Source of the DNA: Bispira polyomma
Taxonomy: Eukaryota
Length of the DNA: 64,000 nucleotides
NCBI GenBank assembly: GCA_965649765.1
Contig: OZ287753.1
Span: 4,154,001-4,218,000, forward strand
Reading direction: 5' to 3'
The notes under the pieces were generated by a model. That model searched no databases, was not told the DNA's origin, and saw nothing but the letters and a program-made list of their open reading frames with translations. The translations under genes and the position numbers were made by a program. How positions within the stretch are numbered: the first letter of the stretch is position 1; each line of letters opens with the position of its first letter. Positions 14,770 through 39,935 of this stretch are shown piece after piece.

Positions 14770-15559
14770 CACAGAAATATGGACTTTGCTGGTATATAAC
14801 ACACTTTTATGGAAGTTTTAAAAAGTTACAAATGGAGTGTTATAAAAGAGCAAAACTACAAAATTGGCGTCTATTGTATTTTGCATTTTAAATGCACCTT
14901 ATTGATGCCAGACATTTTCTTAATCGCAACAAATGAATAAATGAATCAATAGAATAGTCAAAAAAGCATAACCAAGCTCTAATAAAGGATATGGGAGCTG
15001 TACAGGGAGGCAATTAAATAGGGTAAATGAGTTTGAAGAAAACAGTTATTTACGTTGAGAAACTACAACTCATAACTTTAACGCTTCCTTTGCAGTGTGA
15101 TATCAAACAGACGGTTTTCAAACATAAACAAACTTTCTGTTATTATTCATAGCAATAAGCAATAAGTTTTAATACTAAAATGTTAAAGATTTTGCAACAT
15201 TAAATCTTGAAAAATGCTTGCACATCAATCCCAATTTTGAGGATGTCCTGGGGTTGCTACTGTAGTTAATTCCCTGAAGTCAAAACACATTTTATATCCA
15301 TTGTCATGGGCCCTTTTAAAAGTGTGTAATAACATACAGGAGTGGTATTCACAAATGGGCTAATCATTCTAGCACAAAAGTATACTAGATTCTTTTGGTA
15401 AATTACTAAAAGCATAGCTAAACTATGATGGAAACGTATATGATTAACCAAGTATTTTCAGAGTTATGTTCTATAAAATGTACCAATCTAAGTGATTCAA
15501 TAAATATGGTCCTTTTTCTCTTGATAATAAGTGAATTGCTATTATTCTCAAGAATTTAT

Positions 15560-18400
15560 TCAAATTTATTACAAAACATAGGCTTTTATGAAGGGGGTCC
15601 ACTCCCAGAATATATGTTGAACATAAATGTTGATATTAGGTTATCAGACTAATACTTTGTTGTTATAAATCCAAGAAACAACACAATTTGCTGGTAGGTA
15701 ACAAATATTTAAACAGAGAGGCTTTCTGACTCCCCTGAATGGCTGTTTTATTTAAAGCAAGTCTGGAACAACATCTAATCTGCACTTTACAGTTTTCACC
15801 TTTCAGTGAGTGAGATATCACCACAGTAACAGAAGACAATTGGTGATGCTTTAAAAAAACACCCGTCTCAGTAGGGCCCTCAAGGCTTCACATATCATAT
15901 GTTGGTGTAACAATGGACATCAAGGCATGGTGCTTATAATTTGGCTTATTTGGGATTTCCTTTCATGTCTGGGGAACTTGTTTTACACTTATTTGTCCCC
16001 GATTACAACCTTAAAAGATTCACTTTATCCAATCAACTATGGCTATGGTTTTTTAAAACCCAAGACCACTAAATTAAGTGGCAAACTAATCGAAGTATCA
16101 AGGAAATCCCTTGATTTTGTTACTTTATTTTAAATTTGATATATTTTTGTATTATAAACTTGGGAACTTTTTTCTTTCCGGATAAATTTATTGCAGCATC
16201 CACTAGGACAGTTTCTTAGTTACGATAACCCTTTAATAGAATCAGTAGTTTCTGGAGTCCAAGTTTCCAGCAAAATACCCGCACCGAACGGGTGGTGTTA
16301 TTTGATTATTTATTTTATATAAAGTATATTGTTTTCAGCAGGCTAACATATTTGTCTTATTTTCTTGTGTTAACAGACATGAAAAGTCCATATTAAAACT
16401 ACACTGATTATTCCTAGAATTCTAAAGTGGTTGGTGCGAGTGATTCTAATTCCTAGCAAAACGATCAGTCTTAAGGCAAGGTTGTTGAAAAGTGGCTAAG
16501 GCATCTCGAGGACTACTACCCAATTTTATTATTATCAGTGTTAGCAGAGAAAATTTTACAATCGCTGGAAACACAAACAACACTTTCTGGGTTTACCAAA
16601 TAACTTCAAAACTATCTCTTCAAACTTGCTTACCCCCAATACATTCTCTGCGTGTACACACCATACATCATTTCGTAGCTATGTTTTTGAGACTTTTCAA
16701 CAGTTGATTGATTTTGTTGATGTGCTTTAGAAGATACCTCACATCAATAAGGCATTGAAAATGCAAAATACAATACATTTGCTGCTAGATTGTCTGGCTC
16801 CATAACTTTGCATATTGATATTCATGGCTAATTTCCTTAGCGGCCAATCAGCCTTACAATCTTAGTTTGTTGTTTCTCAAAACCTGTTGTTTATCTCATG
16901 ACAAATGAGCTTCGTGTTTATGTAATTTAGGGAAATTTGGTTTCCAATTCGTCATTCTTTTTGGCATTGAAGGGAGATTTAAAATATCCACAAAAGATAA
17001 GGTTTTTAAATCCCAAAATGTTGAATTTTACTGTATTATACCATAACTGTCAGTATTTTTCTAGTTTTGTCAAAAGATAAGTTTTAACAAAGTTGCCAAA
17101 CTCAAAAAAATAACTAACAATAATAACATGATTTTGTGAGCCCTGATAGGTTTTAGCATCCTTCCATGAATCAGTATCAGCCCAACAAATGTCAGACACA
17201 AACTCTGATACTGATTCCTATTGAACTCTTGAAAACCTATTGTCCTTGTATTGTTCTTCCTGTTAAAGTTTTTGCTGATGCTAGTTTGCTGAATGAAAAA
17301 TACATTATATTTCCATTTTTATGGGCGCCTTGAGGTATTATTTAGGATAATGTCTAGACTAAGCCCTTTTGTGAATACTGACCCGAGACCTAATATTTGG
17401 TTTGATAGCACGTGTAGTAATCAACTGCACTTTAGTGTTCTAAAAGTTCACTGTGTTAAGTATGAGATGGCTTGAGGTATTGATTTTTCTCATTTGTCCT
17501 ATCAAGCACATTTGTCTTATCAAACACATTAAGTATGCTATTCACATACAATGTACACATATTTCCTTACACTACACCACACATGAAGCATTGTATTAAG
17601 AAATAAACACTAAAACGACATAGTTAAACTTTGATGAAAAAAAATGATTTCCCAAATGCCCAGTATTAGGTAATTTTTTGGCTTGGTAATACTAAATTGT
17701 GGCATGTTTTTACAAACTCATTACATATTATTATTTACTCCAATTAAACAACAAACATAGGCTTTTGAATAAGTAAGAGGGGGAGGGATGTCCATTCCCA
17801 GAATATATTGTGAACATCAATGTTAAACTTTGTTTGTCATACTAATATTTGCTGAGGCTAAAAATGATTTTAAAAAGCCGTTGTTTCATACAAAACATGA
17901 ACAACATCTAGTCTGCATTTTAGTTTTTACCTTTGAGTGAGCCAGATATCACTATGGTAACGGCAGACAATTTTTGATGTGTTAAAAACACTGTTTTGTG
18001 AAAGGTTCAAACAATGTAGTCTAAATACAATTAGGACAAAATAAAATGCCACTATTTAGAGTAATACAGAAGAGGCTTCTATACAAAGTAAGAACGAATT
18101 ATATCTGGGAAGAAAAATAGCTTTGAACACATTTGAGCTTAGATCACTAGAAACACTTTCTGGTTTTAATTCCGTCCCTGTTATGATCTTGGCTGATGAT
18201 CTTTTTGGGACCTGTTGATTGGTTAATTGATTTTGTTGATGTGTTTTAGAAGATGCATGCGTTAATAAGGCATCCATAGATTTGCCCATTGCTAATTTCC
18301 TTAGCGGCTCTCAGCCTTGCAATCTTAGTGTTCTTGTCATAAAACCTGATGTGTGTTGCATGGCAAATGTGCTTAATTTTTTAAATTAGGGCAAATTTTG
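15560..18400 (+). repeat. Old local duplication containing CR1/L2-like LINE 3' ends
   Basis: ~15570-15860 resembles ~17750-17990; ~16570-16930 resembles ~18140-18400; the TTGATTTTGTTGATGTG..AGAAGAT..AATAAGGC tract recurs at ~60565-60620. Confidence 0.55.
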
Positions 18401-19447
18401 GTTTCAAAAGTTTTCTCATTAAACTATAATTATGAATTCATGTTATCCATAACATGACACACAAAATATAATTTTGTACTGATTGATGAGATTTGTGGTA
18501 ATGTTTCCTAATATCTATTCTGTACATTACATCCTTGTTGTCTAAGAATTTCAATTTATTTGGGTTTTCATTGATTTTAATGGCTTAGATCATATCACGA
18601 CGGCCACATTCAACAGTGAAAGAAACTAGTGCTGAATCATCCGACCTACTGCTAATACCTGACCAAGATTCATGGGATTAAAGTTTCCAGTTGGGTCTTT
18701 GAATGTGCACACCTCAGAAAGTGGGGCTTTTTACATTTAAACTTATATACTTCTTAGTTGTATTTTGCATGGAATATCAACCAATGAATACAAAAATCAA
18801 GTGTAAAATGTCTTCTCCAACCAAATCTATTTACAAATAGCAAACACATTAATCCAATTTAAGAGAGGTAGATTTTTATTTAGCAAATTGTAGTTTGCAA
18901 ATTTAAAACTTTTCTTTCTGGTTTTGAACCAATGTTCTACATAATATTGATGTAATGTTTATTACCAGAGCAATTAGCATTCTTCTAAATATTTAGCAAT
19001 ATATGGTTGTAGCACTACCGTACCTACCTTCCCTTTTTCATACTTTTTGATTCCAAGTGAAGATCCTTAGTAGGAGCTTTGTGCAACATGTGTCGTAGTT
19101 TTCCACTTTACAATCAACCAGCTAATTCATGGGATTTGAATACTGTAGTGTGCATTTAATGTGAGTTTAGTTTGAATTTAATTCCGTTTTACATCGCTTT
19201 CAACTGCTTGGCCATAATTGCGACAGAACAGATTTAAGAGTGCAAGAGACCAGTGCTAAAGCCACTGTAAACAACTGGCCTTGATTCAAATCCATATTTA
19301 TGAGAGGCCAGTGATTGTGAAGCGAAATCTTCTAACCGCTAGACCATTGTTGCCTGACAAGGAGTTTCAATCAAATTGCTTGCTGTACTATATATTATAC
19401 ACCCAAATACACCATGTTTTTTACACACTGTTTTAACAGCATTAATC

Positions 19448-19640: not shown

Positions 19641-20523
19641 AAAAAATATTTTAATGCTATTAATTAGAATAATAGACTTTCAATTATCAATAAAGGTATA
19701 AATCTGGTGATAATGAACCAAAGATGCACATTATTTACAAAAACAAACATTTCATGGAGGGGGATTTTGATTAAGTCTGCACTTTAATATCTTTCTCACA
19801 GCTGGGTCCAGAAAATACTATTTTACTTGATGTGATTAGGAGTGACGGTTTAATCTAACATCAATACATATGAAGTTCTGGTTTGCAGACAAACTTAATT
19901 AGACTGGATAGTTTAGTCACAGAGAAGCTAAAAGAAATGGAACGTTGGCATAAGGTTTGCTGCAATAGCAGAAAATAAGTGCAAGGGACAGAAAGAACAG
20001 CATAATAGCCTTTCTTAGGCTCTGATATATGTATTTATTTAAGTATTTTATTTCTACATATAATACAAACAAACTAAATAGAAAGTAGAACAGGAAGACA
20101 TCTCTAAAGACCACATATATCTGTGTAAAGCCATTTTTCGTCCGGGCATTCGTATTGAAAAATTTCTATACCTCAAACAATAAATAGCTTCCCGTTCATC
20201 ATCAAATTTTGCTTAAAATCCATGTGACTATCGTTAACACTCTTGTCTCTCAACAGCCCTCATACCTTGTTACGTGTCTTTCGGTTACTAGCTTAACCCT
20301 AACAGAGGTAAGAGATTTTCTGCTTGTTCGGTTAAACCAACAAAGAGAGTTGGATCTAGAACTTTTTCAGTTGCTACTCCTTTGTTATAGAATAGTCTTC
20401 CAGTTGACCTTAGATAACTAAAAACACTTTCTGGGTTTAGGAGAAAATTTAAATTCTCATTTATGTGCGTTTGAATCTTTTACCCTAAAGATATAGTTGA
20501 TGAAACCCTACTCCCGATGGGGG

Positions 20524-20780
20524 TTTTGAATTTGAATTTGGATATTTAACGTCCACTCTAGTACCCGTTTAGGTTATATTTGGACTGGTAGTTTGAAACA
20601 CAAGTTTGGAGAAAACATACAGTTGATCAAGGTTCTGCACTGAAAACAGCGGCCCACAGTAAGAAACTACCACCTTTCCCACATAGGCATCGACGGGATT
20701 CAAACTGACGCCGCCCTGAGGTAAGAGACCAGTGATTGTGAAGCACAATGCTTGCCAACCCCTAGGCCACTGCGGCCCCC
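20524..20780 (-). mobile_element. tRNA-derived SINE family A inserted in the Harbinger relic
   Basis: Reverse complement of the 14509 element; perfect 14-bp TSD ACTCCCGATGGGGG at 20510-20523 and 20781-20794. Confidence 0.92.
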
Positions 20781-20794
20781 ACTCCCGATGGGGG

Positions 20795-21160
20795 ATGGAC
20801 ATGATCAAAAGGTTATACAATTACAGGATCTTCAGAGGCCGAAGGATGGTCAAAAATGCATTTGGGGTTTTAGTCTAAAGATTCCGGGTGCTTTGGTCAA
20901 CAATGCAGCAGGAACCACCAGGTAGTGGCCAGCATAGCTTTAGCATGTGTGGTCCTGCACAATGTGATCAGGACAGCAGCTATCAACATGGGTAATCCAG
21001 GTAATCCAGATGATGTCCCACCGACAGAGGTATGTGTAGGACAAAACAACCCAACCAACTGAAAATATCCCAACAGGGCAGCAAAAGAACAGAGAGAGCT
21101 ACTCCTGCAATATTTCACCAATGAGGGAGCAGTGTATTTGCAAAATGGCCGAGTTTGAGT
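20795..21160 (+). pseudogene. PIF/Harbinger transposase C-terminal fragment
   Basis: [27 protein letters not shown] and VVASIALACVVLHNVIR...AKEQRELLLQYF match the Harbinger NY-R-S-R-R-x-V-E-N-A-F-G and C-x-x-L-H-N motifs. Confidence 0.85.
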
Positions 21161-21569
21161 CCACACCTGAGTCTGAGCCTGAGCCAAGAACAAACCTAAA
21201 AGGCCCGTTTCACACTTACTGGGTTCCACATAAAGGGGCCTGACTCAATAGAATGGGAAGGGGTGTGCAATTATCACATTTCTACTTTGGGGTAGTTCCT
21301 AGTATTGCATTTGGTTTTTAAATTATTTGCTTGAGGGTGTATTTTCCTTCTGGGGTGTATGTTAAGCAAATTTTTACTTTTTGGGGAATTTTAAAGTTAA
21401 AATTGTCAAGTTAACAATTTATTTCTTATGTATGTGTGTGTGTGGGGCGGGGGGGGGGGGGGGGGGGCAAGTACTTCTAGGGGCAGTATGCTTTTTGTCA
21501 TTAGGTGTTTCCAAGGGTTTTTTCAACGACAGCTCAAACATTGGTTTTTGATGTTTTAGGTGGCCCTGT

Positions 21570-22845
21570 AAAGGGCCTTTTAGTGTCCGTACTGGGACTG
21601 ATGAAGGAGGAGGAGAGGTTAGCGTCTACACATCAGGGATTGTAGTGCTGCTGCTGCTGCTGGTACTGGCTCGTGGGTGAGTTCTTGGGACAACTGTGGT
21701 TGGAGTGTTCAGAGTGGAATCCGTTTGCTGTGCATCTAGAGTAAGAGGTAAAACTTGATCAGGAGTGTTTATGTTCTGGTAGCTGTGATTGTCACTGACT
21801 CAAAACCTCTGAGGAGAGATGAGGCTGTCGACGCAATCAGTATGTCCGATACTCACTGATATTCACTGATGCTGGGTTTGTGTATTGGTGGCTGGTGCTG
21901 GCTGCAGCACTTTCCAGATGTAAATGGTGCAGTGTGTGGCACCTGGACTGTTAACTGTGGCCTGACAGGTGAGGGCTGAATAGGTCGAGGCACTCTTAGC
22001 TGGGGTTGCTGGGCTGCAGGTACAAGTACCGTGGTTGTGGAGGTGGGTGAAGGCCTCTGGTATTGCAACTGTGGTTGTGCCTGATACAGCTAATTCTCCT
22101 AGAAACTATGGCTGTGGTGTGGTCACCCGGTCCTAGATAGTGCTCCCAAGGTCAAATGCCTTCCTTCTGAAGTGGTTGAATTGTTCATCTGGCAATTTCT
22201 TGCCCTTCAATGTGAACCAGTTCAGAAATGCGCCCCTGTGTCCCTCAACCTTGGGCTTCATGGTGTCTTTGAAGAAGCCTTAGATGGTGTTCTGCATCAT
22301 TGCCAGCATGTCCCTCATCTCAGCAGACAGTGCCGCCTCAGAGTTCGGGGTTGATCTGGCACAGCCTGAAGACTAATGCTTAGTTTGCCATAGATAATCC
22401 TCTGTGATTGAAACCACTTCTTCACTTTTTCCATGTCAAATCCCTTGCCCGAGCATAACTGCAGCCACAACATTTCTTTAGCCTGGGTGTCTTTGTATTT
22501 TTCATCTTTCTTGTTTTTAGCCATTCATGTTCACACAGAAAGGTCACCAGTGCCCCCTCCTCTGCGTCACTAAAGATGACCGTTTACATCTTCTCCTTCT
22601 GTTGTTTCCTCAATATGGAAGACACCTCTCCATCTCCAGCTGTGTCAGCCTTATCCTCCAGATAAGGGTCCTGGGTTCCCTCTTGCTCAATCACCAGGGT
22701 CTGTGAACGCTGAGAAAACTGTGTCTCAGGGATGACAAGGGGCATTCCCACATGAAATTGTTGGTTATCCTTATCCTGTGCCCCCACATGCTCCTCCATC
22801 CTACTCTTCCTTGTCTTTCTTTTTGGTTTTGGTCCCCTAATGCCT
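21570..22845 (-). pseudogene. Harbinger accessory MADF/Myb-like DNA-binding protein (disrupted)
   Basis: KNKKDEKYKDTQAKEMLWLQLCSGKGFDMEKVKKWFQSQRIIYGKL is MADF-like and is followed by a Pro/Gln-rich tail; it converges on the transposase as expected for two-ORF Harbingers. Putative right terminus ...GATTGGGGCT at ~23498. Confidence 0.75.
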
Positions 22846-23919
22846 AAAATTTTCTTAGTGTAATATTTTATTTTCCAGAAAACAACAAAATCCTATTCTC
22901 AATAATAATCTCAATAATAATATCTGTCTATTAAATTGTTGATAGTTGTAAAGTTTCCAAGATGCTGTAGCTGAATAAATGTAGATTACTCTAACGCCCC
23001 CCCCCCCTTCCTCCCCCCAATCTGCTGGCGCCAACTAATTATTGTTTGTTTGGCCAGACTTATCTATTCTATTGGGACTTTCCAGACAACTTATCCTTTG
23101 TTTCCCTGGAGTTATCTTTTTAATTGGGTGCAAAAAAAGGATCTATCTTTGACAAAAGACACGATATCTCGGGGGAAGAAGGGGGGTGAAACGATTACTC
23201 ATAATGGCCCAACCTAAATCTGATGGAAAGATCAATCAGGATGAATTTTCAAACCATTTGGGGGAAGATTGAAAAAATAGATAAAAAAGAAAAGATTTAA
23301 AAGGCAACGATAAGTCAATAGTGGGTTATTATTCACCCCGATTGACTGGCCGTGCTTCCCATATTCGCCTCTGCTTGCAGAGATTATCAAACATGTTTGA
23401 AAACCTCTGCAACCTCCCCAATTGGAAACGATAAGTTGTTGGAATGCCCAAACCACTCTGATAATTGCCCTGATCTTATAATCGTAATGATTGGGGCTAT
23501 GATTGACATAGTAGAACAGGGATACAACATGAAATCTTAAAAAGTACATGCACCATTTAGAAAACAAATTTAGTTAAACCTTTCCACCCCTGTGTTAATG
23601 GCTATGATAAATAGCATGTGTCACTCGTAGAGGTTATATAAGGAACTTTCCTTTACTTTCTCTTGCAGTTGAGGACATCTTTTACATGATTACAAGGCAA
23701 ACCAGGAGTGCAGCAGCACTTTGAACAAGCTGAAGTTTGTGAATCCCAGTTTGTGGTAGTCTAAAGTATAGTGCATTTAAAGTCTAGTTTGGATATTACA
23801 AGTGCTTGTATTAAAGTCTGTGGCCCATTCCAGCTATCTGTAACATATTAAAATGTCCTTCAGTTTACAGAGATTCCAGCTATCTGTAACATATTAAAAC
23901 GTCCTTTAGTTGACAGTCT

Positions 23920-23925: not shown

Positions 23926-24478
23926 GGGCCCAAAGGTTTAAGTATTAGATAAGCACTAACTGAAATTTTATACACAGGTACACAACAACAGTATTTCCCC
24001 ATCAAACTTTGAAAGTTCACACTTTGAGATCATAAAAAAAAGAACACAAACACGTACTGACCAAACATTTGCTCCATCAATTTACAGTCTATATGGGATG
24101 TGTAGTGGTAACACAATGACCACTACAAACTAGGCTCTATGTAGAAATAAGAGTCAGCAAAATAGTATTACAGAGATAACAACTACAAAATATGCATTAG
24201 TACAACAGAAAAGGCAAGAAATAAGCAAGACTATTCAATAACTATCAGCAAATCCTTTTCAAGTTTTCAAGACTTTTTGCATGCAGAGAGACAAATTTGG
24301 TTCGTTATTAACACACAAATTATTATGTTGCTGTGACTTGCCATCATTTTTTTGGCAATATGTTTATATTTGTAAAAACGAAGGCTAAAAAATGGTTTGC
24401 ACAAAACAACTAATCGCAATTAATTTTAATGGTGTATCTACTATTTTGAGCAACCCTATATTAAGTTTAACACAGTAA

Positions 24479-25350
24479 TCAGACAATAATAATTTTTGAA
24501 GCAACATTTTTCCCTCTGGTTAGACCTGTAGTTTGACTTTTGGTTGACCTTTTGTCTGTGCCTTCCTGGCCTGTGGTCAGTGGAATTCCCTGACCGTGAT
24601 GTTGAATGTAGAGATTGTGCCTATTAGATTCTGCCCAGTATGGCAGAGATTGCCGACACTTACAGGAAGATGCACGCAGCAGCTTCCAGGCACATCTGCG
24701 GAAATGTCTACTGGTGGCACAGTACACAATGGGGTTATAGATAGCAGATGCCTTTGCAAATATACCAGGCACCAGGCTGATGTAAGGGTTGAGATATATC
24801 TGGTACTCAGTCATGCCTAGAATAGCCACGATGCTGTATGGTAACCAAGAGATCAAAAACAGCAACACAATGATAAGGCTGATCTTTGCTAGTTTAATAT
24901 CCTGTCTAACGGACAGGTTGTTGGCCTGCAAGGAGGTGACCCCCAGATGCGTTTGCTCTACTATGATGTGTCGCTCGTGTCTATGTATCACCACAAAGAT
25001 GTAGACATAGGAGAGAGTGGTGAGGCAGAAAGGCAGGCCAAATCCCCCGGAGAATAGACTTAGCACAAAGAAGGTGTTACTAGGCCCAGAAGACATGTAA
25101 TCGAAGGTACAGGAAGTGCCCAGTCCGTCCATGACGTAACGCCCCACTCCCAACACAGGCAAAAGGCACCACACGATGGAATTACACCACACAATGACTA
25201 TCATGCCGAGTGTACGGTGCTGGCGACTAGTCACATTAGGTGCGGAGAAAGGGTTAATCAAACCAATCAGACGGTCTATAGCTATAGCGCACATGGAACC
25301 AATTGATGAGAAACCAGATACCCCAGCCAGGATGCTGTACAGGTAACAGA
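24479..25350 (-). CDS. Opsin exon 3 (TM3 to C-terminus), Gq/rhabdomeric-like, probably non-canonical r-opsin
   Basis: Acceptor TTTTTCAG at 25351; (V)CYLYSILAGVSGFSSIGSMCAIAIDRL...GRYVMDGLGTSCTFDY...SWLPY...FAKASAIYNPIVY (Schiff-base Lys and NPxxY); 872 nt including stop. Confidence 0.95.
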
Positions 25351-25690
25351 CTGAAAAAGAAAAACGAGATCAAGAAAGATGTTGACACATGAATAGATAT
25401 ATATAGGGGCACAACAAAATTTACATTTACATTTGCATTTGGAGTATTTTTACTACATATCTTGAATTAAGATACAAAATGACTGAGATTAAGCAATGCA
25501 GCTCGGTGTGCCATAGTCTGTTTGGGAACATATCGATATGGTACAGTTGGCAGCACAGGGTCAGCTAAGGGTATAATGTTAACTCATGCTGTTTGGTTGT
25601 ACTTGGGCAGTTAAGAACACGTGAATTAGCACCTTGAATATCAGATAAAGTTTTTATTTGAATTACAATGCAGTTGTATATGTGACTTAC

Positions 25691-25824
25691 CAAATGTCTG
25701 GGACATATATACGTGACATAAGCTGTAGTAGGCGAGAAAGGGTAAGCTCACAGAACAGGCCAGGAGGTCAGAGAGGGCAAGGCTCACCAAAAGGTAATTA
25801 CCTTTACCCCGCCAGTGTTTGGAT
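25691..25824 (-). CDS. Opsin exon 2 (ICL1-TM2-ECL1), 134 nt
   Basis: TTTTTTAG acceptor and G|GTAAGT donor; (R)SKHWRGKGNYLLVSLALSDLLACSVSLPF; phases 2/1 join exons 1 and 3 in frame. Confidence 0.93.
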
Positions 25825-26084
25825 CTAAAAAATATCAAAACAATAAAACCTGTATCAAACCTGCCAGTCCTGCCAGGTTTATTATAACATGTGTGACTTT
25901 TTGTAGGATTCTACAGTACCCAAATTTTGCATATACTATTGCAGTTGCAAATGTTGTGATTGCAAGTCTACTTGACAATAGGGGAGTCGGTCAAAGTGTG
26001 CTGCTTTGCAAACACTGGAAAGTCAGTTTTCCTATATACACACAAAGATCCAGTTTTTAACCCACAATTGCCGGAGTGGAAGGT

Positions 26085-26255
26085 TAGTATGATACATTGA
26101 CATTATCAAATGCCCAGTCACATCAATAGGGTTAACGTGTCTGGGTGTCACCTCCTTGTGGGTCAACAACCCGTCCATGAGACAGGATATTAAATTGGCA
26201 AAGATCTGCCTCATTGTATTGCGGTTTTTTATCTCTTTGCTACCATACATCATCT
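26085..26255 (+). pseudogene. Inverted degenerate copy of part of opsin exon 3, inside opsin intron 1
   Basis: Plus-strand CTGGGTGTCACCTCCTTGTGGGTCAACAACCCGTCCATGAGACAGGATATTAAATTGGCAAAGATC...CTACCATACATCATC aligns with the reverse complement of ~24830-24995. Confidence 0.9.
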
Positions 26256-26879
26256 TTGTTTAACCTGTTTTTTCTAAAGAGGGCTGGATCTAGGAATAGT
26301 CTCCCATTTGAGCTTAGATGATTAGAAAACCTTTCTGGGTTTAGGAGAAAACTTGCATTAAACATGGAAAAAATAATAAAATTCGAATATTTGGACACTA
26401 GGAAGGGCTATATAAACTAGCAACCTTCTGAAGTAGCAGCTGCAGGTTTGTCCCTGATAAATGCCTGTCCCCAATAAATGCCTGTTATGTGTCTACAATT
26501 TTTAGTAACTTTACCAGTTTCAATGATGAAGTTTGAAGTAAAAAGTTACCATCATCACAAAGTTCCCAGGGTCTAGTGACACTTAGATAAGTGTGTTTAT
26601 TTTAATGCAGTCCCACCCATTCCCTTATGTCAAAAGTGAGATGCATCAGACTTAACTTTCTGACATTTGGTTGAGTAGATTTAATAATGCAGTCACAACC
26701 CATTCCCTTGTGGCAGAGTGTCATTTGTCAGACTAAACCTTGTTTCTGGATAAAATACTTGTGTCTGAAAAAATTCCCAGCCTTGCTTTTAATGATGTCA
26801 GTGTTCAGCAAAGACCATTGTTTGATAACAAAATTTAATTTTGCACTATCTGTACTTTAGTCCCCTGAATGTTTGCCAT

Positions 26880-27150
26880 GTTATGTACTAGTTAAAATGC
26901 CTAGTGGGCGTGAAAATGCTTTCTTAAGTATCCCTACCTTTGTACGATCAGTTCACAGGTAAAAAAAACATTTTAACAATAGTTTCTCATGATGCTTCTA
27001 AGCAGTGGAATGGTCTGCCTGATGATATTTGTACTGCCTCCTCACTTGCTGGTTTTACGAAAAAGCTCAAAACCTTAGCAATGCTTTTTTTCCATAGCCT
27101 TGTTACCTTTAACAGAGATAAGCACTATAAAAGTTAAATAAGATTAATGT
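26880..27150 (+). mobile_element. CR1/L2-type LINE 3' fragment
   Basis: TTTAACAATAGTTTCTCATGATGC...TGGAATG..CTGCCT...AAAAGCTCAAAACC and AGCACTATAAAAGTT tail, shared with 30850-31180, 39600-39935 and 50815-51130. Confidence 0.8.
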
Positions 27151-27870
27151 TATATGCTTCCTTTACATCAGCATCGCAGCAACGGCCACATACTTATCTG
27201 ATTGGTTAAATGACTTATAGGCACAAGGTTTTCCTTTATAATGTTAAGTAGACCCCTTCTCATGTAACAGAATTCAATTTAAAAAACAGCCACATCTAAG
27301 AAGTGTGATGAATATGTCAAGTGAGAATTGTCATAACCCACTCCAAACCAGGAATATACAAGGAATCTTAGATGTAGTTGCATCAATTAATATTGGAGTT
27401 GTAGAATACACTCAGACTTACGAAGTTATGTGTATCATATATCTAGAACTTTGAAATATACGTAAAACACAGTGTACTCAGGTACATCTCCCAACATATT
27501 CTATAGCATATATCATGACAAATGAGTGCACTGACAAATAAAGAGAGGAACCAATATTATTTCTATTGACTTTTATGGGATAAATTGGAAATATAAGCGA
27601 AAATGATTGCAAAATTACCTTTTTCTTGCTTCTTAGAAGTTTTTACTATTGTTTTTATTGATTTATTGGTGAATATATGATGTAACTGTTATCGTTTGAT
27701 TTCGGAAGTTTTACGAATGAAGTTAACCAACAATAAACTAACTGAAGCTTCAATTTGCACAACACTTTGCAAACTAAGCCTTAACCAAGACCTTACAAAT
27801 CCATTAGCATATCAAGGGCTTTGATTTACAGGCCCCTGGTCCATAATGGCTAGCCAACCTGTGTACTCAC

Positions 27871-28157
27871 CTTACAAATACGATAATCACCACAATGTTT
27901 CCGATTGATCCAATTAGTCCCAGCACAGTTATCACAAGACCGACCATGATGTAGTGGCTGCTGGGAATCGTAGAGTAATCCCAATCTCTGAACAGAAACT
28001 CAACCCCTGCCCCAGGGACGCCCGTTGACTGGCCAGATGGATGCAGGGGCCTCAGGGGCCCGCCCCTACAAGTGACGTTTTCCTGGGCATATCCCAGACT
28101 GCACAACCCAACTGTGTTATTAGCATGTACAAATGACGACATCACAGCCGCCGTCAT
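27871..28157 (-). CDS. Opsin exon 1 (N-terminus and TM1), 287 nt
   Basis: MTAAVMSS...NNT...NVT...HYIMVGLVITVLGLIGSIGNIVVIIVFV; AG|GTGAGT donor at 27870; conserved GN motif; two N-glycosylation sequons. The true start could be Met6. Confidence 0.9.
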
Positions 28158-29773: not shown

Positions 29774-30171
29774 CTATGGAGCCCCTAAAGTGACATAGCA
29801 AGGAAATGAGATTTAAAAAGAAAATATTGTTACCGCAAGAGAGCAAGTTGTTACCTCAAGATAATAATAATTTATTTCTTTTAATTAATAAATTGTTACC
29901 TCAAGATAGAAAATCATTACCTCGAGATAGTATGTCGTTACGAGATCCTATCTTGAAGTAACAAGATGCTATTATGAGGTAACGAGATGCTCATAACAAG
30001 ATGCTATCTTGTGGTAAATACTTACTATCTTGAGATAACAACTTACTTTTTTGAGGTAAAGGCTTAATTTATTGAGGTAACAACTTATTTTCTTGAGGAA
30101 TGACTCATTATCTTGAGAAAATATTTTTTTTAAATGTCACCCATTGCTGTGTCACTTTAGGGGTTCCGTAG
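29774..30171. mobile_element. MITE with ~28-bp TIRs and an internal inverted array of ~21-bp repeats
   Basis: CTATGGAGCCCCTAAAGTGACATAGCAA ... TTGCTGTGTCACTTTAGGGGTTCCGTAG; TTACCTCAAGATA units in the left half and TATCTTGAGGTAA-like units in the right half. No clear TSD. Confidence 0.85.
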
Positions 30172-38578: not shown

Positions 38579-39935
38579 GTGAAAAAATTATTGTTCTTTA
38601 CCAATAAATTAATTCGTCACAATCACTACAAATCAGTCATTGAAAAAAATTCACAAAACGGGAAAAAGCTCTTGCAAGAATTGCGCAGAGTCCTCCATAC
38701 CACACCTGAGTCCATCCTTCCAGCATTCAAATCAGGAAAATCTTTGGCAGAAAAATTTGGGGTTTTCTTCACAGTGAAAAAATTAAAAATATCAGAAACA
38801 TGTTCTCTGGCTCAAGTACATGTTGCATTCCCCCTACCCGACCTCCACAAAATTTCTTTGGCTTTACTCAAGTTTCACAAGATGAAGTCCTTAAAACTAT
38901 AAATGAATCCCCCACTAAAACCAAACATAGCAATATCAAGTACCACTTTTATGCTGATGACACACAGCTGTTGCTCATCTCTCATATAAAAATGCCACAA
39001 CTGTTCTCGACAGTTTAAAAGGTTGTCTCAGTGATGTTCAAAAATAGATGTTTGCCAACAAGCTTAAATTAAACCGGAACAAGACTGAGTTTATACTATT
39101 CGGATCAAGAGCACAGACTGATAAATTTAAGGATTTTTTCAATATTTTAGGAAACAGGGTGTACCCTGCAGATGCTGTCAAGAACCTGCGGGTGTGGTTT
39201 GATTCTACGTTTTCCTTCTCCAAACAAGTTTATGAAGTTTGCAAGTCTTGCTTCATCTAAATGAGGGATCTAAGAAGGGTTAGGTACTATTTGTCAGCCA
39301 GTACTGCTACTATAGTTGCAAATGTCCTGGTTACTGCAAATCTCTTTACAGAAGTTTATCCAAGGCTGACATCCGTCAGTTGCAATGCATCCAAAACTCA
39401 TAAGCCAGACTGGTGGCCAACCATTCCAAGTACTCCTGTGTTACTCCAGTCTTGAGATGTCTCCACTGGTTACCCATTGAGTTTAGATGTATGTTTAAAA
39501 CAGCTACCTTAGTCTACAAATTCTTAACTTATGGCCTTCCAGCATATTGGAATCTATACCTCACACTTTACACATGCAGTCATAATACCAGAAGGAGCAG
39601 ACCGGATAAAAGTTATGTGACAGTTCCAAGATTTATCTCATCAGTACACAAATCAAAATGTCAGTTTAACAATAGCTTTGCCCATGATGCTCCAACACTT
39701 TGGAATGAATTACCTGCCAAAATTTGTTGTGCAACCTCACTCACATCATTTAGAAAAACCTACCTTTTCGACAAGGCTTTTCCACCATAGCCCTAAATTC
39801 ATCCAGTGTCTCCATGGTGCTGACCCATGTTTGTCTAACGGAAATGCAAATTGAATAAGGATACTGTCCTGTGCCTTAGAATCCCCTAAGAATGAGAGAT
39901 TAAGCCCTATAAAAGTTAGATTGGATTAGATTAAA
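38579..39935 (+). mobile_element. CR1/L2-clade LINE, truncated and internally deleted RT pseudogene
   Basis: YHFYADDTQL (RT YADD motif), NKLKLNRNKTEFILFG, KNLRVWFDS, TPVLRCLHWLPI, LWNELP; (ATTAG)n-like tail; frameshifts. Confidence 0.92.

Follow-up and report, generated by a model that had tools for sequence, protein, structure and literature searches.

Intron 1 of an r-opsin-like gene of Bispira polyomma contains an inverted copy of part of the gene's own exon 3, at a similarity far beyond chance. On a slight balance of probability, we read this copy as a decayed piece that was taken from the gene by a template-switching LINE (non-LTR retrotransposon) and that likely has no selected function. 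That it is neutral debris, whatever its origin, is very probable; this was the fallback of the original prediction (neutral debris of an inverted duplication), and both the substitution pattern and the pairing tests favour it. Beyond that earlier observation, the analysis adds a LINE remnant at the 3′ end of the copy and a second opsin-like copy. All coordinates are those of the window, the whole stretch of 64,000 nt that was analysed (Table 1).

An inverted exon piece in an r-opsin-like gene

Self-BLAST of the window aligns 24830-24970 with the minus strand of 26254-26119 at 80.9% over 141 nt (E = 4.8e-30). A repeat search returned the same inverted pair split into two arms (88 nt, 82%; 44 nt, 86%). 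Within the core, 128 aligned nt carry 21 differences and one 3-nt gap. On its 5′ side the copy extends to 26090, corresponding to 24990 in the exon, through a 13-nt match (12/13) equalled by 0.5% of 4953 random window segments. No 3′ extension was found, as 37.6% of random segments match equally well there. Thus around 130-165 nt of the last exon were copied into intron 1, 1099 nt from the exon arm. These results bear out the original prediction, which had described an inverted copy of ~24830-24995 at 26085-26255, about 80% identical in its core, an exon arm encoding a peptide that begins HRHERH (the same peptide is read from 24830-24990) and a distance of ~1.1 kb. As a separate observation, the window holds three other inverted pairs lying at most 5 kb apart.

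The arrangement is also found in sequencing runs. One contig of 1122 nt, the sole contig in the bin over the copy, spans 25819-26940 with 0 differences in 3/3 runs, which argues against an assembly error, with the qualification that the three runs represent at most two samples of one study and may be the window's own source. For these runs, 40 of 278 difference rows and 24 of 7870 pieces were covered. None of the runs listed as containing the stretch is on record as RNA, which says nothing about expression, and all belong to one organism code. Two broader explanations were rejected. The single contig in the bin speaks against a fragment carried by a transposable element of the Pack-MULE or Helitron type. 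A larger inverted pseudogene in the window finds no support, given the lack of any other opsin remnant, either in the window or in the rest of intron 1 (intron 1 scores of 18-27 against background maxima of 31.5-33).

The gene itself lies on the minus strand and has three coding exons of 287, 134 and 872 nt with GT-AG introns, which together encode 430 amino acids with 0 internal stops. This three-exon structure places the copy in intron 1, and exon 2 and both acceptors between the two arms. Exon 3 encodes a rhodopsin-family GPCR segment for which squid rhodopsin is the best solved match. The alignment with squid rhodopsin shows the retinal-binding Lys in TM7 and the NPxxY motif, and K200, N206, P207 and Y210 are invariant in a 14-row opsin alignment. 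The sequence is that of an intact, divergent, r-opsin-like gene whose G-protein coupling is putative.

Table 1. Coordinates of the opsin gene, the inverted copy and the LINE remnants of intron 1
Feature	Position	Strand	Remarks
Opsin exon 1, coding part (N-terminus and TM1)	27871..28157	-	Start ATG taken as the first in-frame Met
Intron 1	25825..27870	-	2046 nt, GT..AG; includes the inverted copy along with several high-copy repeats
Second LINE 3′ remnant in intron 1	26903..27083	+	Different family, separate insertion
LINE ORF2 C-terminal remnant	26257..26359	+	Clear from 26275, probable from ~26257; 30-nt internal deletion; no 3′ end
Decayed copy of the exon arm	26090..26254 (core 26127-26254)	+	Opsin sense on the plus strand, so antisense in the pre-mRNA; single copy in the runs examined
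Opsin exon 2, TM2	25691..25824	-	134 nt; frameshift if skipped
Intron 2	25351..25690	-	340 nt, GT..AG
Opsin exon 3, coding part (TM3 to stop)	24479..25350	-	7tm_1, retinal-binding Lys, NPxxY
Exon arm, ICL3 to TM6	24830..24990 (core 24830-24960)	-	

Its closest protein relative is 48% identical, and the named relatives that score best are nemertean, limpet, mussel and scallop r-opsins at 36-40% identity, from which a lophotrochozoan host is likely. An HPK/HPR motif after NPxxY and a Glu at the counterion site are canonical Gq/r-opsin features, which the named relatives also display. By contrast, this opsin has SRH after NPxxY and an Asp in the loop before the second Cys, the usual counterion site. 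A quick tree of 63 rows, with no named non-canonical r-opsin reference among them, separates the opsin from the named canonical r-opsins; it clusters with five unnamed proteins (SH-aLRT 94) and falls inside no starred clade. The unnamed r-opsin-like group, itself divergent, consists of P0004, P0005, P0021, P0026 and P0029. Two of its members, P0004 and P0005, start at the same TM3 boundary as opsin exon 3, which suggests that they share the same large last exon. In having squid rhodopsin as best solved match, the retinal-binding Lys and nemertean, limpet and mussel hits, the gene resembles the non-canonical Gq/r-opsins of lophotrochozoans (PMC10982516).

The gene looks alive: among the listed differences of the runs from the window (40 of 278), five of the seven coding ones of run X3 are synonymous and two are Val/Leu swaps. 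These coding differences lie at 27893-27969 and 24791-24809 and are not among the differences listed for X1 or X2. The gene is CpG-depleted (o/e 0.43). In addition, a second opsin-like sequence was found over 24422-24641 (C-terminal tail and stop), with 25 differences in 220 nt in 3/3 runs. It represents either a recent paralog or a highly divergent allele. This second sequence could have been the donor of the intronic piece, its known extent being 24422-24641, outside the ICL3-TM6 part.

Decay of the copy and the adjoining LINE remnant

Differences between copy and exon number 7/42, 9/43 and 5/43 at codon positions 1, 2 and 3, respectively, with dN/dS around 0.74. One TM6 codon is missing from the copy. 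A Trp present in 152/152 relatives reads Leu in the copy; this 152-row ICL3 alignment is gappy and does not fix the ancestral residues. The even spread of differences over the codon positions and the loss of the invariant Trp are consistent with a dead copy whose source was this gene or a very close sister. As no third-position excess is found (Fisher p = 0.45), an old paralog that was still working is disfavoured as the donor.

Directly beyond the copy, which ends at 26254, a LINE remnant begins within 0-20 nt and runs in the same direction. We found that 26294-26359 is identical in 55/66 positions to a LINE copy at 20390-20455, which in turn matches 25 of 62 fetched LINE-type proteins, many of them with a reverse transcriptase domain (PF00078) and several also with endonuclease domains. 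Taken alone, the remnant is a weak protein match (1/62 at E < 0.05, HMM E = 0.32), and its identity as a LINE therefore rests on the DNA match to the copy at 20390. Reads show 26293-26354 to be high-copy, the reads of the family diverging in their continuation at 26354. The apparent linker of 39 nt between opsin piece and LINE appears to be largely the same LINE element: 26276-26292 matches the 20390 copy at 15/17 positions, co-linear across the 30-nt deletion (a level reached by 0.26% of 19,895 random segments). The match of 26257-26266 to a third LINE copy, 9/10, is weaker (2.5% of 20,000 random segments). We take this LINE to be L2/CR1-like. Divergence is of the same order at both levels, 11/66 between the LINE copies and 21/128 between copy and exon, although the numbers are small.

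The chance that one of nine plus-strand LINE 5′ ends would lie within 20 nt is ~0.3%, rising to 1.5% when ends on either side, 24 in all, are counted; these figures are post hoc. The shared direction of copy and LINE says little, because most LINE ORF2 3′ remnants of the window (16562-60497) lie on the plus strand, nine of them compared to 1-3 weak ones on the minus strand (longest 38621-39820). Two hallmarks of target-primed insertion are absent. We found no target-site duplication, the longest exact repeat between 26040-26100 and 26350-26700 being 7 nt, and no LINE 3′ end or tail, as nothing past 26359 matches any of seven other copies above background. The target-site duplication may have been erased by age or deletion.

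The surrounding sequence contains a number of other elements. Six repeat-derived ORFs obtained no Pfam name, and the Atlas gave unnamed clusters only. Just downstream of the opsin, 20500-22900 is possibly a decayed PIF/Harbinger-type element: 22387-22515 (minus strand) matches P0215, a protein with PF10545, in its N-terminal part (E = 5e-5), and 20874-21059, which has no Pfam hit, resembles the C-terminus of a DDE transposase. At 29774-30171 lies a MITE-like element bounded by 28-nt terminal inverted repeats, with a palindromic array of ~21-nt units in its interior. Finally, 15554-16947 and 17733-18408 form a degenerate direct duplication, in several pieces at 70-81% identity.

Predicted pairing of the two arms and its possible roles

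In the fold of 24800-26290 (minus strand, 1491 nt of pre-mRNA), the MFE and centroid structures alike contain the long-range duplex of the two arms, with both acceptors inside the loop. This agrees with the earlier proposal that the arms would pair in the pre-mRNA and loop out exon 2 and the exon 3 acceptor. Any inverted copy at 80% identity would fold in this way, so that the fold is uninformative on function. Between the intronic arm and the intron 1 acceptor there are 265 nt, and the exon arm starts 835 nt beyond that acceptor. With the arms on either side of this acceptor, the duplex would be possible only while intron 1 is unspliced.

We found no sign of selection for pairing. Read on the transcribed strand, the 21 differences comprise 4 G-U pairs, 9 A-C or C-A and 8 other mismatches. 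Only 4/21 thus keep pairing, and the duplex is more stable on the opposite strand (-199.7 kcal/mol compared to -188.3 on the transcribed strand), contrary to the suggestion that mismatches might favour G-U on the transcribed strand. The G-U share of 4/13 transitions fits the neutral half (two-sided p = 0.27) and would be unlikely if 70% were G-U (p = 0.004); with 13 transitions this test is small, and a function requiring no more than partial duplex would escape it. When as many transitions and transversions were placed at random in 400 neutral simulations, 98.5% of these gave a stronger core duplex than the observed -160.8 (simulated mean -176.3, sd 7.5). The longest unbroken helix of the observed core is 15 bp.

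Several roles can be imagined for such a fold-back. As a splicing switch it would loop out exon 2, and exon 2 and both acceptors do lie inside the predicted loop. Yet the exon 3 acceptor needed for skipping sits in the same loop, the arms, at 265 and 360 nt from the closest splice sites, mask none of them, and skipping of exon 2 causes a frameshift with a stop after 127 amino acids, which leaves next to no chance for this earlier reading. Very slightly more probable is that the fold-back might be diced to small RNAs, or the excised intron might act as an antisense RNA, damping the opsin or its sister copy. The predicted duplex of ~130 bp and a near-identical second target are in line with this, and a precedent comes from the snail Lymnaea, where a regulatory antisense RNA arose by inversion within a duplicated NOS gene (PMC3537157). 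The likeness to these antiNOS RNAs is that of an inverted gene piece able to pair with that gene's message, in a lophotrochozoan. AntiNOS is, unlike the present piece, a separate transcribed pseudogene that acts in trans, whereas the 130-165 nt described here sit within an intron of the very gene and give no hint of a separate transcript. A separate antisense pseudogene of the antiNOS type can be set aside, the piece being intronic and the window holding no other opsin remnant. A small-RNA duplex is ~21 nt long, and the longest helix is shorter than that. Moreover, a coding exon of the mRNA itself forms one of the arms, splicing of intron 1 would end the structure, and the pairing shows no upkeep.

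The original prediction also proposed an editing-complementary sequence that recodes the G-protein interface. In its specific form, the copy would direct ADAR to exon A's opposite C and change His (24948) and Gln (24927) to Arg in ICL3, restoring losses caused by CpG decay. A-C mismatches are favoured ADAR sites, and four exon A's face C in the duplex, which is predicted in the pre-mRNA context. Two doublets read CA in the exon and TG in the copy (24949-48 and 24928-27; 0.29 expected by chance, P of at least two = 0.026). In a CpG-depleted gene, they suggest an ancestral CG in both places, hence Arg codons, and changes of Arg to His and Arg to Gln in the exon after copying. Arg or Lys occupies the His column in 40/115 aligned relatives; the closest relative has Arg. 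For coleoids, a harm-permitting model along these lines has been published (PMC6881472). Against this, CpG decay in both arms gives the same mismatches without selection, the 5′ neighbour is unpaired at both sites, and exon-A/copy-G accounts for 4/13 transitions, the expected share. The Gln column is Arg in only 15/130 relatives and is not reliable, and 26/34 core exon A's would be non-synonymous if edited, TM6 sites included. The arm also lies upstream of its target and its pairing is not maintained. We therefore give the editing reading a slender chance, and the failed G-U test and the place of the arm in an upstream intron leave the earlier proposal unsupported.

GluA2 Q/R is an ADAR recoding site with an intronic editing-complementary sequence. 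In most cases of site-selective editing, the partner is found in the downstream intron (PMC3479170), whereas the copy in intron 1 is upstream of its putative target in exon 3. With known intronic editing-complementary sequences such as that of Gabra-3 (PMC3479170), the opsin intron shares a segment complementary to a coding exon, a single pre-mRNA and A-C mismatches. It differs in its upstream position, in being a recognisable exon duplicate, in its unmaintained pairing and in being known from DNA. Extensive recoding is reported to be far commoner in coleoids than in other animals (PMC9068888). A search of the open-licence literature returned no report of opsin A-to-I editing via an intronic complementary sequence, which does not imply that none is published.

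Origin and meaning of the copy

The layout of the insertion, an opsin piece in sense orientation followed 0-20 nt further by a LINE 3′ part in sense orientation, is that of a template-switch insertion. By this route, reverse transcription would start on the LINE RNA and jump to opsin RNA or DNA some 1.1-1.4 kb off; about 165 nt of opsin template would be copied and integrated as opsin piece and LINE 3′ part, in this order. Since the LINE runs antisense to the gene, the opsin piece would emerge inverted, and a template of nascent RNA or DNA at the site would account for its closeness to the source. A later deletion would remove the LINE 3′ end. Should transcription pass through exon 3 before intron 1 is spliced out, a transient, imperfect duplex of 130 bp might form, and any effect on editing or splicing would be a side effect.

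Template switching is known to yield chimeras of mRNA and LINE in the same direction (PMC13174262; PMC2104539). As in these chimeras, the transcript piece lies 5′ of the LINE piece and points the same way, here with 0-20 nt between the two. The opsin insertion differs in that it has neither target-site duplication nor tail, and its piece is internal to an exon instead of consisting of first exons that end at a donor site. It also lies inside the donor gene of an invertebrate host, and its LINE is presumably L2/CR1-like and not L1. We found no report of local templated retrotransposition with an inverted 5′ junction in the open-licence literature, and do not imply by this that it is unpublished.

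Neutral debris of another origin is a possible, rather unlikely account. A DNA-level inverted duplication or a repair-templated insertion, from this gene or from its sister, would have been followed by a LINE hit and trimming by deletion. All neutrality results fit such a course, and so do the source at 1.1 kb, the lack of a LINE 3′ end and of a target-site duplication, and the existence of the second opsin-like copy. Templated insertions from nearby DNA have been described. Indeed, a LINE inserted in a longer inverted duplicate that was then trimmed by deletion would give an identical picture. Nevertheless, the rest of exon 3 is absent from intron 1 on either side of the copy, at the below-background scores given above; the tight junction would require a separate LINE insertion and a deletion; and only one record in each run can be placed at two sites of the stretch, with a single contig in the bin over the copy. 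We continue to place the template-switching LINE first.

A bolder version joins this origin to editing: by capturing the gene's own nascent transcript, the LINE would have created a ready-made editing partner, two ICL3 Arg would have been lost by CpG decay, and ADAR would restore both at the resulting A-C mismatches. The chance of this is small indeed. If true, it would be the one-step birth of a restorative recoding site in a loop that contacts the G protein, likely outside coleoids. Restorative editing would offer a cheap two-site test (24948 and 24927) of the harm-permitting model in a light receptor, and it would show a recoding site and its intronic partner arising in one step. As neutral debris, the copy would have little import: it would be one more inverted intronic copy of an exon, and a possible case of LINE template switching onto a host gene.
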